A stretch of 64,000 nt of DNA from Massalongia carnosa (GCA_965645245.1 OZ287088.1:744001-808000), one strand, 5' to 3'. Shown: positions 1-7,301, numbered from the stretch's first letter. A program made the numbers and translations. Notes: generated by a model from the sequence alone, not told the origin.

Positions 1-409
1 CGGGCCGTATCCGAAAGCTCGCCGGTATATTTCCCGCCACCGGGCTGCTCGTTGATATCGATAAAGTGCCCTTCGGCGACGAAGTTACGCATTGGTCCGA
101 TGAAACGTCCCTCTCGAGGGCGGCGTGTGTATCCATCCCCATGGGCACGACCGTCTAGAAACTCACCGATCCAGGTAATTCCCGTCGGTATTCCTTGGTC
201 ATCGACTTGACCTTGCTCCTGATGAGTAATTCACCGTAGCTGTAGCTTTCGTATCGTCATCGAACACGACTTGGGAAGCTTCACCCCGTCTTTTAACGTT
301 GCTAACCTCACATTCATCGTCGAACTCCCCTTCGTAGGAATCTCCATTCCAGTAAGTGATTTTCCCATGATCATGTTCCCGCCCATTAGTCTATTCGCCG
401 ATGTAATTT

Positions 410-990
410 TTATTATTATTATTAATTCATTAAGCGTATGCATCCTAAGGATATGACGCTGTGACTGCTATTTATGTACATAAACAACAGTCAGGAAGTG
501 GAAACCTGGCCCCCAGGGTAAAACCACTCCCTGTTCCATGTTGAACGCAACGAGACCGTCCTTCTACCACGCGGTGCATACACCCGGATCTTCAAGCGCT
601 AGGAATCCTATAGACTCGATGAACTAGACAGTGTATTTTCACACGTTCGACGAACGTTCTCTCTCTTTAAACGTTTTGATTCAATGGAGGAAAGACTGGC
701 CGTGATCGAGGGCAGATCGTGGTGTCGTATAAATGAAGGTGTGTAAGTGTGGCCATTCTAAATGAATGGGCTTTTTCGATGTGGTGAAAGGCTTCCGCCT
801 GAGGGGTGTGGCCATTCCGAATGAATGGGCTTTATATGTGTGCCTCCGAGGTGACGAATGATCAGTAGAGACGTTGATCGTTCAAATGGCCACCGAGGTG
901 GACTTCCGCGTTGGCGATGATCAGATATTGGCCACCTCCGAGGAGGTGTTGATAGCCTGCACCACGTAGAGCTTTCTGACCCAGCAGGCC
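410..990 (-). mobile_element. Non-coding SINE-like (non-LTR) retroelement with (TAA)n tail and 13-14 bp TSD
   Basis: CGCCGATGTAATTT at 396-409 and 990-1003. (TTA)n at 410-423 is the 3' tail on the minus strand. Removing the element restores a MORN repeat. No ORF. Confidence 0.85.
919..990 (-). ncRNA. Degenerate HDV-like self-cleaving ribozyme at the 5' end of the SINE-like element
   Basis: Minus strand reads GGCCUGC-UG-GGUCAGAA-AGC-UCUACGU-GGU-GCAGGCU-AU-CAACACCUCC-UC-GGAGGUG-G-CCAA-UAUCUGAUC. 7-bp P1 with G1.U wobble, P2 pseudoknot, 7-nt L3, P4 hairpin, catalytic C in J4/2. P3 has one mismatch. Confidence 0.75.
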
Positions 991-1360
991 GCCGATGTAA
1001 TTTGATCCAGTGTAGTAAATCATGATATCATGACCATGAGAGCGATCCTTGGACTACTGCCCTTCGTATTTGAACATTTCTGTTCACGTCCAACTCATGG
1101 CACCGAATCCGTCACGGCGGCCTAACACCTAGTCCCCTTCATAGACGCATCCGTCAGGACTCGAGAGCCGGCCATAGCCATGAAATTCATCGTTTGCCCA
1201 CGGCCCCCTCATAGACGGTACCAGAAGCAAACGTACAAGTACCCTGGCCTTCCCTAACATCACCTCTCCATCTTCCGATATATTTGTCGCGGTTTGCATA
1301 CACAGAACTTCCCTTTCCGTGCCGAGGGCCATCTACTAGTCTCCCTGTGTATTGGTTGTC
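991..1360 (-). pseudogene. MORN-repeat array (first five to six repeats); continues at 1-409
   Basis: YTGRLVDGPRHGKGSSVYANRDK / YIGRWRGDVREGQGTCTFASGTV / YEGPWANDEFHGYGRLSSPDGCV / YEGD*VLGRRDGFGAMSW / YEGQ*SKDRSHGH.. / NYIG. After the insertion: YIGE*TNGREHDHGKITYWNGDSYEGEF and WIGEFLDGRAHGDG. Fits YxGxWxxGxxxGxG with ~23-aa period. Confidence 0.9.
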
Positions 1361-1474
1361 AGTGCAGCCAAGCCTTGCAGCGAGCTTTCATAGTCTGTCC
1401 AGAGCGATGGCATGAACATGTTCTTCTGCCTTAACCCACGCATTCAACGTTCTAGTAATTCGCGGGCTCCATCG

Positions 1475-1915
1475 TGTCAGCTGAACATATACATAATTTC
1501 TATCTATGTTTGGGCAACCCTCCCCTCGCTGCTGCCCTGCTGGCGCTCAGTTTTGCTGAGGGCCCCTCCTATAATGGCTTTGTTTTGGCAGCATTGAGGG
1601 GGAAAACTCCATCTACCTATGCGGCTGATTCAGGGAGTGGGTGGGTGGGCAAAAGACCTTTTGGTGCTGAACTCCGAATCAATGGTGATGATGAGGAGAA
1701 GAGTGCCAAAAGGTCACCTATTTATGCCCTTTCTCTCCCTTGTTTGTCCAACTATTTTGGACATCATCCTCCTTTGTCCTTCGGCCTTCGTTGGCTGTTC
1801 GCGGCCTGCCTCCACTCGGTCCTTCGGCTATCCACGGCCTTCAGCCTTCGTCGGCTGTTTCGCGGCCTGCCTCCACTCGGTCCCGGCATTAGTTACCTTT
1901 CGCCTTAGCCGAATA
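1475..1915. mobile_element. Solo-LTR-like insertion in the NLR relic
   Basis: Starts TGTCAGCTGAA and ends TTAGCCGAATA, resembling Copia-1 LTR ends TGTTGAGCTGAA..TTAGTCCGACA. Internal ~40-bp repeat at ~1784 and ~1844. No matching TSD. Confidence 0.6.
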
Positions 1916-3320
1916 CTACCACGGCCAGAGTCTGCTCCAGTTTTTGATATGTGGCAACAGAGTATAGCCATGATAATCCACCAGACGACTTAAGAAACTC
2001 GTTGATCTAATCAACGTGTATGTCCTACATGTACGTGCCAGAAAAGGCAAGCGTACTCTCGAAAGGCTTGGGCATCTGAAGCGAAAAGGCACTTTGCTCC
2101 TTCATCGTCTGACTCGTCTGGGCTATCTCCTGCAGCTAGGATCTCAAGACAAAAGCAAGCAATCTTGTAATTTCACGACTCACTGTCAACATAGAACTCA
2201 GACCGAATATTGCTTCTGAGATATTCCTGTACTGTCATATGGTTTGCTTGGACGCGCTGTTGTTTGTCGACGCCAAGCAATTGCCCGCAAAGATTCTTCA
2301 CTGTGGAGGCGACATCCGTCAAAACTCCAAATTCAGCCTTCAATGCAACTCCGAGCTCGGCTAAAGACAATGGGTGCGCAGCGCAGGTTGTCCAACCAAG
2401 AATTGTCTTCGCTATTAGTATCCGGCGTGCACCTAAAGTTCCCATCTGATTGATAATATTATCATACAAAGAGGACAGTCCCTGTGAAGAATCATCGACA
2501 GAGTTTAAAACACCGGCAATAAGCTCCTGTTGCTCCAATGCGTCGACAGCTTTAGCAACCCAGAGGAAAGTTCCACCGGATCTCTTCACGATGGAATCCA
2601 AGACTTTCGCCTGATGCCTGTCCTGCAGCGCAATGGGAGACGTAGCAAGACGTTCTTTTGTATATAGTCGTATGTCTTCGAGGTTGTCATCTGGAAGTAC
2701 TTCGGAGATAGTAATTGGCAAAGCTGAAAGGCGCATAGCAATCTCTCGATTGTATCTGCTAAACAAAATCACTTTGATAGGTGTTTCGGAGGTCTGGAGA
2801 TGGGAGAGAAATGAAAGGAATTGAAAGAGCTCCGTGGGTTCGGATTCATCAAGGGCGTCGATGATCCAATAGATTGATTCCGTTGACTGAAGTCGAAGTA
2901 TTCCGTTACAGAATATCTTCTGCCAGAGCAGACCCAGTCTGGCCGAGTCGACATTCAAAACTTCCGAGCTAAGCTCCAACAGCCGGGCCCGGATATGAGG
3001 ACATTGTTCTGCCATTTGGAAGGCGAAGTTCGAAGCAGATTTTGAGGATCACGCAAAGCCTCGTTATTGTAACGAAATGGGAAGAAGCAACAAACTTCTC
3101 CAGCGTCTAGAAACTGCTGCGCAAGAAAGCTAGATAGCACTGATTTACCAGATCCTGGACGGGCATGACATCAAAGGATTCTGGGTAGCACACCAAGCAT
3201 CCAATCGCAATAAGATGCTTTCGAGAAGATCCAGTGACAAGTGTTAGGCCACTGCCGTATCCTTTGCAGTGTCCTCTCCTCCTCCACCTCGTCCACGGGC
3301 TTGAGCCATGATTGTAACCC
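1916..3320 (-). pseudogene. NACHT NTPase plus helical/winged-helix region of the NLR relic
   Basis: ORFs 2955-3140 and 2173-3015 join by a frameshift. Walker A RPGSGKS, Walker B IIDALDE, ILFSR, SGGTFLWV, PLSLAEL, LCGQLL..HMTVQEYL. Confidence 0.9.
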
Positions 3321-5732
3321 TATCTCGCGAGAGGAACTCAAAAGCTCCTGAATGTCTGGATTTAATTTGACTCAATAGACATCAAGCAAATTAGAACGAA
3401 TGATACCTACAATTTTCACTACTGGAGTCCAACCTAGCTTTCCACGCGACAGCGGAGAAAGCTTGCGAAGGATTTTTCGCGCGAATATTGGCCCAATATC
3501 CACCACTACTATCTAGTGTCTGCTTTTGAATAGTGAAGGATTTTGGTTGGCAATCGAACATCGTCAGAGGGTAAATTGCTTCGATTTTCAGTACGATCAA
3601 GCTCATATAGCCTCTAGGTAGGGCACGTACGCGAACAAGTCGTCTTAACAGCACGTAAAATCAAGCTACAAAACTTTACTACTTGCTTCATGATTGACAA
3701 GTAGTGCTCGGAGAGTGTGTCGTTGCCTCGAGAATTCCTAGCTTGATCCATCAATTGAATGATACTCTACTCCCGAGACTGTCTTAGCCATGGACTGAGA
3801 AGGCGGCCATTCTCCCTGCATTCTTGGAGATTAGTTGTCTGGTTTTGAGTGCGTTGACCGAGCTATTTCATAGGTAAAACGAGAAGATTAGTAGGGTTTC
3901 AGCCTGGCCATTGTGTACTGAGGTACTTTGATGCTCTCATGTATCATCGTCCTTATAAAATCGGGCAATTGCAGCTATTGGGGATTGTGTTGGTCAGTAT
4001 AAAAGTCTTTCAGAATGAATACTAGCCAAAGCTATGACTGGATCGCTAACACGTGAGTTCTTCCTCCCTTGGGACGTGATAAGGCTGAGCTCTTCGATCA
4101 AGTCGGATATATACTCCAGCGCTGGTGGTGTAGAAGTCGGCTTACTGGAAGTGTCGATGGTTAGAGTCTGAGCTACTTCAGGTGTGCTCACGGATGCTGG
4201 GTTGGGCTTAAGTCGGGAAAGGCAATAGCTCTCCCATAGGTTGCTTAATCTAATTTTGTCATTATTCTAAATGATACAATAGAAGCTCGAGCTCGGGATA
4301 TCATCAGAAACTCCGTCATCACAGAATACTAGAATACTAGAATTTTTGTAGATGAGGGAATGCTGCACCCGGCCCTGTGGAGATGCTTCTTTCATCTTGG
4401 GCATGTTGGAGCGAGTTGCGAAGATGTAAGGTTTGTATCCGAGGAATATTTAAGTCTGAAGTTGGACTATCCTCCTGGATCAGAGCCTGGAGAGTTTGTC
4501 ACTTTTCGTATTATCAATTAGCGGGGGAATGTGAGCTTGCTGCTAAGCTAGCATGAAGCTTTGCCAATTGAGCTTCGACATCAATCAGTGTCTTTCTAAG
4601 AGAAAGATCAGCAAACGCCCCTTGCCACCGCGATTTTCAGAATGCATACCCTATGATCGTGTTCAAGAGCAAATTTAATGCTTGAACATATGACTCTATC
4701 CGGTTGCGGATGCGTTGAATTTCCTCCTCTTTGTACATCCATCGGGCCTTCTTTACGTTAATACGCAGTTTAAGAACCCACTTACGTCCGTCAAGTGAAG
4801 ACATCTTTGTTGACGTCTTCGTGTTCATCGATGAGTTTTTGAAGAGCCTCCAGCGAACTACGACACCCTAATACCATTCGCCTAGTGATGTCTTGGAGTT
4901 CTAGGGTTTAGGCTATGCCGGTCGGCCTCGAGACTGCGGCAGAAAGTTGATCGAGAGTGGTGGAGCACGCCCACAGTTCATTTGCCAATACAAGGACGGC
5001 GGCCGGAGCGCCTTTCCTTCCCGTTGTGCTCGCCTGATACAACGAAAGACATATCTTGGAAAGAATAACATAGCCAACGCCAATACCAAAATATATCATG
5101 CCAGAAAGTTCGCCGGTCACCACAGTGTCGTGTTCCGATGGTTGATGCTCGCCGCCAAAAACGATGTAAGCTCTGGAACGTGAGTGTGGTAGGGCTGGGC
5201 GTGCAGCTAGCGCATTACAGGCGAGGAAATGAGACGACGAGAAAAGGACGTAGAGGACGCGGACTGCCGGAAGAAAAATAGGTGGAATGCTCAGAAGAAG
5301 GGGCTATAGTACGGGCGTAATGTTAGGACACCGGGGCGAGAAGTACACCGATACATGGATCAAAGCCGCTACTAGAAGCATGTGAATCTAGGTAATAGCA
5401 CACGTGAAATGGATCTGCAATGGAAAACGAGTGATGAGTGGACTGCCAAAGCGCAGCACTGATAAGAAAAAAACTCTCAATGGCTAGCCTTGTTTCGGCT
5501 ACTTGGGAACAAAACAAAGGGTGCGGGCGATCAAGAAATGATGCTAGCACCCAAAATTTCTCTGAAAGATCGACAGCCAGTAAGTCACCTCTTTAGATTT
5601 CCGCATATCTATCCAGGCATGCACATCTTTCCATGTACGGCTGAAAGGTGCCCCACCTAGCTGGCATCGGTATAGTTATTTTACGATGCAAAGCCGTAAT
5701 GTAAAGTCGCCAATGTTAGTTGAGAACATTAT

Positions 5733-6990
5733 TCAGAATTTTGCCGTGTGAGGGGGACTCTCCTCAATGGGAGGATTCTGCACTTTCCAATGTGCCAGCA
5801 CGGAGACTAAGGCAGCTGCTTCTTTGTATGTGTTGCCTGCATGTACGCAAAGTCGCAGCCGCTCAGTCCCGCGTGATAGGTTGGGAAAGGTCAATGGTAC
5901 TACTGCGAAACCCAGTCCCTTTAGTCAAGAAGCTAGAGGCCTGTGGTTAGGCATTTTTATTGGTATCATGGGTGAATTCGTCACCTCAGAGGTCAAGAGG
6001 ATGTAACCATGGGCCAATAAAGCTGTCTGAAGGTAGGTGGATAAGCTGAAAAGACGTTTGACGAGAGTTTCATGCTTGCTGGAAATCTGAAGGTCGTACG
6101 ACTGCTCGATGACGACGACCGTGGAAAAGGGCATCGCTGTCGAAAACTGAAATGGCGCCGCGAAGTTGATCAAGTCCGGATGACTTGAGGGCATAGTACT
6201 ACGGCTGTTGCAGGGCCTCATTTCACATTTATATGCCATCAGAATTTTGTACCAAAATACTCACCTCCATTGCAACCAGGTGCCTTGCCGAAGGTGTGTA
6301 CTTGAACAAAGCTGCTTGTCTCTATACCAAGCTCGCACACATATCATTTTCCTTGTGCGCCATAAATGCCAGTTGAATGTGCCTAAAAAATTCAAAGTCA
6401 GCCCTGATGTTAAAAATCGAGTAAATGAATCCACAAAGTGTTACATACCTCATCAACAATGATATATCCATTACCCGCTTTAAAAAGCTATTGAACGGTC
6501 TCTACGGTTTCTTGCAGAGGGAAAGTATCGCCATCCATACTGTAAAACGACTCAATGGCGATAAAGACATTGACTTCGCCTTTCTTAAGCCTTTCGACCT
6601 TAGCAAGCTCGAGAAGGTGTCGTCGCAGCTCAGGTTCTGAGTTGTGATTAAATGGAAGCTTCAATGAAGCTTGGCTGAGTCTCAGACCCTCGTGTATGCT
6701 TGCGTGAATAAGTTGATCGAACATGACCGTGTCCCCAGATCTCGAAGGCGTTGAACATATTTCTCACCCTCGCTCGTATCTGTGGCGAACGAGAGGTAGT
6801 CATTAGAAGCAAGGTCTTCTTTCTCCCTCTCTCAAACTATTCCCCTGGCATCCATCTCTTCGGCTCTGGTCTTGTAGTCCTCAATAATCCTCAGTTCGCT
6901 TTTCACCCGACGGTTTTCCAATCGGGTCGTGATTTGTTCTAGCAAAATCTCGCTCTAAGGTCTGAACTTTCTCAATGCAATGTTCTTGTC
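5733..6990 (-). pseudogene. 8-amino-7-oxononanoate synthase (BioF)-like PLP aminotransferase class I/II pseudogene
   Basis: DLASNDYLS, DQLIHASIHEGLRLS, VFIAIESFYSMDGD, IIVDE/AHSTG, HTFGKA (PLP lysine), ERLRLCVHAGNT. In-frame stops, frameshifts, apparent internal deletion and introns. Start approximate. Confidence 0.85.
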
Positions 6991-7301
6991 TTGCAAATTT
7001 GAAAGCCGAGCAAATTTCTGGTAGGCTCCGTTACTTTACCTACCCGCTCCTTTGAACCACACGAGTTTTTAGGTAAGGGGCTCTGCACTCTTCACGCAGC
7101 TGCGGATAAGATGAGCATGCAAGTGGGCTAAATTGTCCCGAGCACTGCATGGCGGATTAGCGTCGCTCTTGCCTCACAACCGACCTGAACCGTCCACCGA
7201 ACAAGAATCAAGCTACTAGAAATGTATTTAAAACATTTAGTTCTAACAAGCCGTCTACAGATCGCGGTAAATCATAAAACTTGCATGCGGAGAAAGCATT
7301 A

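Follow-up and report, generated by a model that had tools for sequence, protein, structure and literature searches.

The start of a 64,000-nucleotide stretch of the Massalongia carnosa genome (GCA_965645245.1 OZ287088.1:744001-808000, analyzed over its whole length and called the window here) carries what looks like a broken gene for a fungal NOD-like receptor (NLR; NOD, nucleotide-binding oligomerization domain) that ends in MORN repeats. This raises the question of whether a NACHT module and a MORN array truly belong to one protein and, if so, what such a protein would do. Fungal NLRs are known to mix heads, NODs, and repeat tails. We read window positions 1-5099 as a decayed copy of a small but genuine ascomycete family of NLR-type signal transduction ATPases with numerous domains (STAND), built from a SesA-like head, a helical spacer of ~300 residues, an NPHP3_N-type NACHT with a winged helix, a linker, and approximately 14-15 MORN units, with a sensor role presumed for its intact members. 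We put the probability of this reading at roughly 80%.

The layout of the gene follows from its alignment with P0005, a full-length homolog of 1347 amino acids (aa). In tblastn, P0005 residues 1-1234 were collinear with the window from 5099 to 3 on the minus strand, on which all parts of the gene described below lie; residue order was kept, with frame changes and two DNA gaps. The gene begins with an ATG at 5099, and its 3′ end lies off the window start, with ~113 residues missing. Six-frame reading of window 1-7000 gave short open reading frames (ORFs) and a single longer one (291 aa, minus strand). The domain order was a SesA-like helical head, the NPHP3_N-type NACHT with its winged helix, a helical linker, and the MORN array. 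Thus, tblastn with P0005 and the Pfam searches agree with the original prediction that a SesA-like head, a NACHT, post-NACHT helices, and MORN repeats lie collinear on the minus strand; the boundary given there, 5123, was close to the actual ATG at 5099 without coinciding with it.

The homologs demonstrate that the NACHT and MORN parts belong together. A search of the 291-aa window piece against longer proteins returned 20 matches, and the 10 closest (40-77% identity, E ≤ 1.4e-51) all carried NPHP3_N (PF24883), the winged helix (PF22939), and MORN (PF02493) on one polypeptide. Among the next 10 homologs (27-31% identity), six had WD40 or other beta-propeller families and none had MORN. The homologs therefore neither hold NACHT and MORN as separate genes nor all end in WD40, ankyrin, or tetratricopeptide (TPR) repeats; WD40 relatives appear only in the more distant tier (27-30% identity). 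Furthermore, a scan of metagenome contigs revealed two loci, L001 and L002, in which the region can be read without interruption: P0005 residues 452-1252 correspond to one gap-free frame of 801 codons in L001, and residues 452-1257 to one of 806 codons in L002. These single frames (2.4 kb, 79% identity to P0005) run from before the P-loop through into MORN unit 12. Together with the 10 closest homologs, they support the proposal of an atypical fungal NLR class with C-terminal MORN repeats.

The original prediction had cautioned that a deletion at the first of the two insertions in the gene could have fused two genes. On that account the apparent NACHT+MORN gene would be a chimera, in which a deletion or a repeat insertion at 1454-1916 joined unrelated NACHT and MORN genes, and the lack of a clear target duplication at insertion 1 is consistent with it. 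However, the codons flanking this insertion (..QTLAVV/RTLNAW..) are neighbors in L001, L002, and other homologs, with no residue lost between them, and both domains are present in 10 of the 10 closest homologs. Because L001 and L002 read from NACHT to MORN gap-free in a single frame, the joining of two genes by a deletion is excluded, and we regard the chimera as highly improbable. The occurrence of NACHT and MORN on one polypeptide is a real architecture.

An exhaustive HMMER search with P0002 as the query was made against 1.84 billion cluster representatives; the best 150 matches were listed, and 30 of them were scanned with Pfam. NPHP3_N and MORN occurred together in six of the 30 (P0021, P0022, P0026, P0045, P0052, and P0086). 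With P0006, P0007, and P0010, the best 150 matches include at least nine representatives at 50% identity that combine NACHT and MORN; the remaining 117 unscanned matches of the 150 align solely to the MORN part of P0002. In a maximum likelihood tree of 33 NACHT plus winged-helix modules, from which the fragments P0013 and P0023 were excluded, 12 of the 16 MORN-bearing rows formed one clade (support 99/96). P0026 and the repeat-less P0041 (666 aa) joined this main clade at weaker support (90/88), and three other MORN rows formed a second clade whose placement is not settled. The MORN label clusters on this tree (0 of 500 shuffles were as low), and the starred branches demand at least two changes.

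The nucleotide-binding core of the window copy is still legible. The NACHT-type NTPase core, located at 2755-3245 by Pfam and homolog alignment, matches NPHP3_N in two pieces, each in its own frame (40.4 and 55.3 bits; cutoff 24.8), compared with 142.5 bits for P0005. The classic NACHT model PF05729, named in the original prediction, gave 20-29 bits on the family, under its cutoff. A Walker A motif, RPGSGKS, is found at 3141-3161 and fits the P-loop consensus GxxxxGK[ST]; a Walker B motif, IIDALDE, lies at 2845-2865 (DALDE at 2845-2859) and fits the NACHT signature D[GAS]hDE as defined by Kibby et al. (bioRxiv 10.1101/2022.07.19.500537). In the 15-sequence family set, the Walker A residues G55, G57, K58, and S59 and the Walker B residues D154, D157, and E158 (P0002 numbering) are invariant. 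The STAND module's winged-helix domain (Pfam GPIID_WHD) follows at 2188-2418 (63.7 bits, E 2.2e-17), and the first part of the post-NACHT helical linker, corresponding to helices 379-501 of the P0002 model, at 1917-2187. The NOD part of that model matched Apaf-1, Dark, MalT, and Avs3 in a Foldseek search of the PDB.

Beyond insertion 1 (1454-1916), the end of the linker (1352-1453) leads into the MORN array, whose first Tyr is at 1349-1351. The segment 1004-1453 holds this linker end, MORN units 1-5, and the start of unit 6; positions 1-395, as placed by homolog alignment, hold what is left of unit 6, then units 7-10 and the first part of unit 11, after which the gene leaves the window. Pfam detected MORN at 1187-1387 with 47.8 bits (cutoff 22.5). 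Measured against the units of P0005, the window therefore has 10 complete MORN units plus the beginning of an eleventh, in line with the predicted minimum of eight. P0005 itself scored 113.3 bits for MORN in six Pfam stretches. Its units start at 972, 995, 1018, 1041, 1066, 1089, 1112, 1154, 1178, ~1202 (degenerate), 1226, 1249, 1272, and 1295, making 14 whole units and a partial one at 1319, spaced by 23-25 residues save for two longer gaps of 42 and 48.

For the fold, the homolog P0002 was modeled in place of the broken window copy, using AlphaFold with a 15-sequence alignment. The model (mean predicted local distance difference test score, pLDDT, 86.1; predicted template modeling score, pTM, 0.73) comprises an alpha/beta NTPase, helical domains, and a MORN sheet, the last with 32 strands in residues 508-872 at a pLDDT of ~90. 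In Foldseek searches of the PDB, MORN1 of Trypanosoma brucei and Toxoplasma gondii ranked first (E 2.6e-18), followed by radial-spoke MORN proteins and junctophilins, and the matches to MORN1 and junctophilin structures reached E values down to 2.6e-18 at 24-34% identity. The modeling thus predicts the beta-hairpin array expected of MORN repeats. The C-terminal 365 residues share this predicted fold with MORN1 of T. brucei, T. gondii, and Plasmodium falciparum (6T4R, 6T6Q, and 6T4D) and with junctophilins (7RW4 and 7RXE). In contrast to MORN1 and the junctophilins, which are stand-alone scaffolds or membrane tethers without an NTPase, the array of the window family forms the tail of a STAND switch.

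Orthologs conserve the MORN array about as well as the NACHT, and it is not hypervariable. Across the eight closest proteins, mean pairwise identity was 73.8% for the NACHT, 62.8% for the lid and winged helix, 47.5% for the helical linker, and 68.6% for the MORN array; across all 15 sequences it was 45.0% in the NACHT and 44.2% in the MORN array. A check of repeat variability had been proposed for this gene, and these values (68.6% against 73.8%) give no sign of hypervariability. Within P0005, the units resemble each other at a mean identity of only 25.5% and a maximum of 47.8% (13 units, 78 pairs), and the near-identical units within one protein that mark hypervariable NLR repeats were not seen in P0005.

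Long MORN arrays were also observed behind other heads. In P0025, such an array follows a kinase and a non-NACHT STAND NTPase, and in P0031, P0039, and P0042 it follows TIR domains. These arrays comprise 12-21 Pfam-matched stretches, and the layouts are immune-like, with MORN in the position of the repeat tail.

The head of the family was examined through exon 1, which spans 4652-5099 and encodes the SesA-like helical N-terminal domain (P0005 residues 1-152; 70% identity to P0005 1-100 in tblastn). Of 12 family N-termini, 10 had SesA (PF17107) as their top Pfam match at E ≤ 1, with a best E of 3.5e-4; RPW8 was also touched by two of the 12. The SesA scores obtained for P0005 (13.6 bits) and L002 (17.9 bits) were below the cutoff of 26.3 bits, and the sub-cutoff L002 match spanned profile positions 7-122 of 122. 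Neighbors of the head in a language-model comparison were ascomycete Atlas clusters with SesA or PigL_N in 10-27% of members, and the Atlas look-ups gave only general NACHT or SesA/PigL_N clusters. A word-based search of P0005 residues 1-175 against long proteins returned P0005 itself as the sole match. The AlphaFold model of the head was all-helical (9-26, 32-51, 53-57, 67-102, and 108-151) with a poor pLDDT of 58.7. The SesA/HeLo-like N-terminus of the original prediction thus has sub-threshold support: SesA is the leading match in most of the family, and both scores obtained lay under the Pfam cutoff; a SesA-like identity is likely, but not proven, on these profile matches.

In P0005 the head and the NACHT-MORN body are on a single polypeptide. 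The products of exon-1 ORFs lie on contigs equal in length to those of P0001, P0002, P0004, P0007, and P0008, and because exon-1 and body products come from equally long contigs, these matching sizes suggest that the head may lie upstream of the body in those other genomes as well. Between head and NACHT, intron 1 (4595-4651; GTATGC...CTGAT...TTAG) is placed as the 51-nt intron of L002, and the segment is absent from P0005. The following region, 3356-4594, is weakly conserved and helical (P0005 ~153-450; 31-42% identity in tblastn); Pfam recognized no family in it. Splice sites read from the sequence indicate more introns here, the last at 3356-3410, as well as more stops. Since segments that are stop-bearing introns in L002 and the window are absent from P0005, the latter is probably the product of a spliced transcript. 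At the position of the GT donor of L002 intron 2, the window (4490-4550, minus strand) has GCAAGC, either a GC-AG intron or a further lesion.

The window copy itself is a deep pseudogene, a non-working member of the family. When the main exon (3355 to 1, insertions removed) was aligned to the L002 frame (72.9% DNA identity), eight in-frame stops were counted, at 3171-3173, 2173-2175, 2007-2009, 1388-1390, 1129-1131, 1084-1086, 1054-1056, and 391-393; that at 2007-2009 falls within a gapped stretch and is the least certain. Seven of the eight replace TGG Trp codons (3171-3173 is TGG>TGA). The exon also has four frameshifts (-1 near 3027, -17 near 2024-2038, +1 near 1211, and -8 near 217) and in-frame losses of 27 nt near 178-192 and of a net 3 nt near 1412-1420. 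In exon 1, TAA at 4908-4910 is a stop, and 2 nt are deleted near 4802. Repeat-induced point mutation was considered as the cause of the TGG-to-stop changes and rejected, with TpA/ApT (0.73) and (CpA+TpG)/(ApC+GpT) (1.31) in the gene similar to those of the rest of the window. Trp-rich MORN units have many one-step routes to nonsense and are unusually exposed to stops.

If the stops and frameshifts were sequencing or assembly errors, the window copy could still be functional, but nothing was found in favor of this. Against it, the contigs of runs X3, X5, and X6 showed no differences from the window wherever they covered it, including the lesion sites and the junctions of both insertions; run X3 may be the source sample and hence not independent of the window. 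Eight stops, four frameshifts, and two repeat insertions in one exon confirm the predicted pseudogenization, and, as far as contig data can tell, a functional copy is next to impossible.

The two insertions that interrupt the gene, as the original prediction had noticed, are high-copy dispersed repeats, since the summed contig depth over both far exceeds that of their flanks. In X3, the depth was 250,000-700,000 over insertion 2 and 93,000-425,000 over insertion 1, compared with ~850 in the flanks (several-hundred-fold for insertion 2, ~100- to 500-fold for insertion 1); in X4, it was 1,800-6,200 compared with 25-28, and a large excess was found in X5 too. No second copy of either insertion was found within the window. 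Insertion 1 was located at 1454-1916 (463 bp) rather than at 1475-1915, between two codons that are adjacent in homologs. It has a ~60-bp internal tandem duplication and, in gene orientation, the ends GTATTC.. and ..AATTACT; other copies begin at 1455. A repeat search found no terminal inverted repeats at its ends, where an imperfect match of ~8 nt is visible by eye only. The predicted absence of a target-site duplication holds, with nothing beyond a possible TA. The label of long terminal repeat (LTR) given to this element is not supported, as no LTR feature was found: TG..CA ends are missing, there is no duplication of 4-6 bp, and no match to the gypsy/copia LTR elements of the window was seen.

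Insertion 2 (410-989, 580 bp, gene orientation) is a SINE-like (short interspersed nuclear element) non-LTR retroposon, because it combines a 14-bp target duplication, an A-rich tail, an empty site, a fixed 5′ end, and many copies. The duplication is an exact direct repeat, CGCCGATGTAATTT on the plus strand, with its upstream copy (in gene orientation) at 990-1003 and its downstream copy at 396-409, 100% identical and 594 nt apart. The tail, TTAATAATAATAATAAAA, is of the A-rich (TAA)n-A type and adjoins the downstream duplication. The empty site, which had been proposed for inspection, is present in an X4 lichen-metagenome allele, where record 9 (a 1112-nt contig) joins 395 to 990 with one copy of the 14-mer. 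The 5′ end is fixed, since 17 other contigs of X4 and X5 end at 990/991. No tRNA-like or RNA polymerase III head was detected by ARAGORN (no tRNA in 1-6000) or Rfam (no tRNA, 5S, or 7SL at E ≤ 1 in 380-1950).

Non-LTR retroposons such as R2, L1Tc, and similar elements have a 5′ end set by a self-cleaving ribozyme of the hepatitis delta virus (HDV) type. The 5′ end of insertion 2 (919-990, minus strand) gave full-length but sub-threshold matches to two HDV-type models within 1 nt of the boundary, namely RF02682 (20.7 bits, threshold 44) and RF00094 (16.8 bits, threshold 50). For this 72-nt segment, the fold of minimum free energy (MFE) contains P1 and P4, and visual inspection allows a P2 pairing (GGUCAG/CUGAUC); P3 has a mismatch, P1.1 is not evident, and the MFE (z -1.17) was no better than that of shuffles. 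Insertion 2 thus resembles the ribozyme-headed elements in its target duplication of variable length (14 bp here), A-rich tail, common 5′ end, and HDV-type match at the boundary, and differs from them in HDV-type scores far under threshold and the lack of a reverse transcriptase in its 580 bp. One possibility is a SINE-like element with a ribozyme head that the fungus carries in many copies.

The allele in run X4, which is labeled as a lichen metagenome, allows the lesions to be ordered; such a close allele in a run of this kind suggests that the window comes from an ascomycete that forms lichens or is associated with them. It differs from the window at ~2% of aligned positions (~98% identical). 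In 1921-5400 only four indels separate it from the window, an extra G at each of 2612 and 3919, -8 at 4323, and +6 at 5078; there are none in 990-1453, and in 1-395 only an extra 27 nt at 178. The frameshifts of the window near 4802, 3027, 2024-2038, 1211, and 217 are common to both alleles, as is the stop at 391-393, where none of the seven X4 differences in 1-395 falls. Because these frameshifts and this stop are shared, the gene was dead already in the common ancestor of the two alleles. X4 has CGA at 1388-1390, where the window has TGA, and a private frameshift from the +G at 2612. The SINE-like retroposon, the 27-nt loss, and the stop at 1388-1390 are thus later events in the window lineage. 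At insertion 1, the X4 match of record 9 stops at 1453 and that of record 15 starts at 1921, and no listed contig bridges the site.

L001 (1295-5724) and L002 (4505-8644) are 99% identical alleles of one NLR gene that are broken differently. L001 has an exon-1 stop in the same alignment column as that of the window and lacks 1 nt near residue 1252; in L002, deletions of 284 bp and of 8 nt are found. P0006, a Logan-derived protein with 13 member sequences, is an open ORF of 884 aa that is 99.7% identical to the L002 translation. Broken alleles thus exist in another species too, which suggests recurrent loss or, for the small indels, assembly errors.

Upstream of the NLR start on the same strand, an exon at 6491-6763 (minus strand) matches aminotransferase class I/II (PF00155, 23.1 bits, cutoff 19.7). 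Window 13000-64000 is rich in transposons, with Ty3/gypsy and Ty1/copia polyprotein ORFs (≤1545 aa), DDE_3 (Tc1/mariner-like), and MULE transposase. The NLR pseudogene is located near the edge of this transposon-rich stretch, which extends from ~13 kb on.

The architecture can be compared with what has been recorded. In their main texts, surveys of fungal NLRs name only ankyrin, TPR, and WD40 repeats as tails (Dyrka et al. 2014, PMC4986451; Wojciechowski et al. 2022, PMC9815663), and approximately one-sixth of the tails are described as made of hypervariable repeats with high internal conservation (Wojciechowski et al. 2022, PMC9815663). The word MORN is absent from the main texts of these two papers and of a 2025 paper on Sordariales NLRs, and from the supplements searched (all but file 1 of Dyrka 2014; all but files 13-17 of the Sordariales paper). 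Supplementary file 2 of Wojciechowski et al. (2022, PMC9815663), however, holds at least two MORN rows, CRG89396.1 (Talaromyces islandicus) and PMD14608.1 (Hyaloscypha hepaticicola), the latter annotated as NACHT with "MORN PKINASE". Going by the table annotation, both are, like the present family, ascomycete NLRs with MORN after the NOD, and differ from it in having SesB-like rather than SesA-like heads and, in PMD14608.1, also a kinase. The Figure 2 legend of Kibby et al. (bioRxiv 10.1101/2022.07.19.500537) lists MORN among domains fused to NACHT across the tree of life, a pairing that, as far as the legend tells, the window family shares. In a Drechmeria paper, MORN domains are described as rather uncommon among fungi. 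The NACHT+MORN combination is thus on record in a data table and a figure legend, and no discussion of it was found in the literature searched.

Compared with fungal NACHT NLRs of the HET-E/HET-D type (NACHT plus WD40), the MORN family has the same NOD of NPHP3_N/NACHT plus GPIID_WHD, the same tripartite layout, and a helical head. The nearest non-MORN relatives of its NACHT (27-30% identity) carry WD40 propellers, as the HET-E/HET-D kind does. In contrast to that kind, it has MORN in place of WD40, ankyrin, or TPR, with units that are 25% alike and conserved between orthologs. It is a rare variant within a known kind of fungal NLR and of moderate interest.

If intact members work like other NLRs, their MORN sheet would keep the NACHT module off and bind a cue. 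Binding of the cue would release nucleotide-dependent oligomerization, and the clustered SesA-like heads, as helical domains of the HeLo/RPW8 type, would act on the membrane and cause cell death. Since conservation of the array is on a par with that of the NACHT, and since its units differ from each other, a conserved molecule would be the likelier cue, ahead of an allorecognition partner that changes fast.

MORN1 dimerizes through its MORN repeats, and junctophilins tether membranes. The array of intact members might likewise anchor the protein to membranes or mediate self-association, with sensing located elsewhere, for example in the ~300-residue spacer or a partner protein. The nearest solved folds, which are those of MORN1 proteins, junctophilins, and axonemal MORN proteins, favor such a role, as does an array that is conserved rather than variable. 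However, the array occupies the position of the sensor or autoinhibitory repeats of NLRs, the whole-chain pTM of 0.73 suggests that it may have a defined arrangement with the NOD, and other MORN arrays stand behind TIR or STAND-kinase heads in an immune-like layout. We consider an anchoring or self-association role unlikely, though worth keeping in mind beside the sensor role that we favor.

Less probable still is that the family is a conserved housekeeping STAND ATPase of some ascomycetes with no role in immunity or cell death. Ortholog-like conservation across all domains and repeats that are not hypervariable would fit such an enzyme. However, disabled alleles recur (the window, X4, L001, and L002, beside the intact P0006), and this recurrence indicates that the gene can be dispensed with, as NLR genes commonly can. 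The family is also small and patchy, with at least nine representatives at 50% identity among the best 150 matches, 30 of which were scanned, and its head resembles SesA. An NLR-type function thus remains our preferred reading.

Several points weigh against that reading. L001 and L002 are themselves lesioned and so display the architecture without providing a working gene. The SesA match is under the Pfam cutoff in both scores obtained, and the N-terminal model is poor (pLDDT 58.7). For every family member the mechanism is drawn from analogy alone. The MORN proteins with solved structures are scaffolds, dimerization modules, and membrane-junction proteins, so the array may anchor or dimerize rather than sense, and strong conservation of a repeat domain is not what the best-studied fungal NLR sensors show.

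As a tentative proposal, which we think more doubtful than not, MORN-tailed NLRs could form a distinct, conserved sensor class of ascomycetes, possibly enriched in lichen-associated fungi. Its members would respond to one conserved cue, such as the lipid state of a membrane or a conserved partner or invader protein held in the groove of the MORN sheet, and would act through a membrane-attacking head of the SesA type; the same logic might operate behind the TIR and kinase-STAND heads of P0025, P0031, P0039, and P0042. The gain in knowledge is modest, because domain swapping is expected among fungal NLRs and the combination already appears in a published data table. The window copy serves as a record of the death of an NLR gene, in which old frameshifts would have been followed by transposon hits at a repeat-rich border. 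Little is known of what MORN repeats bind; in this family they come with a built-in read-out, oligomerization or cell death, and its conserved tail of 14-15 units offers a tractable case for finding what a non-variable NLR tail senses.

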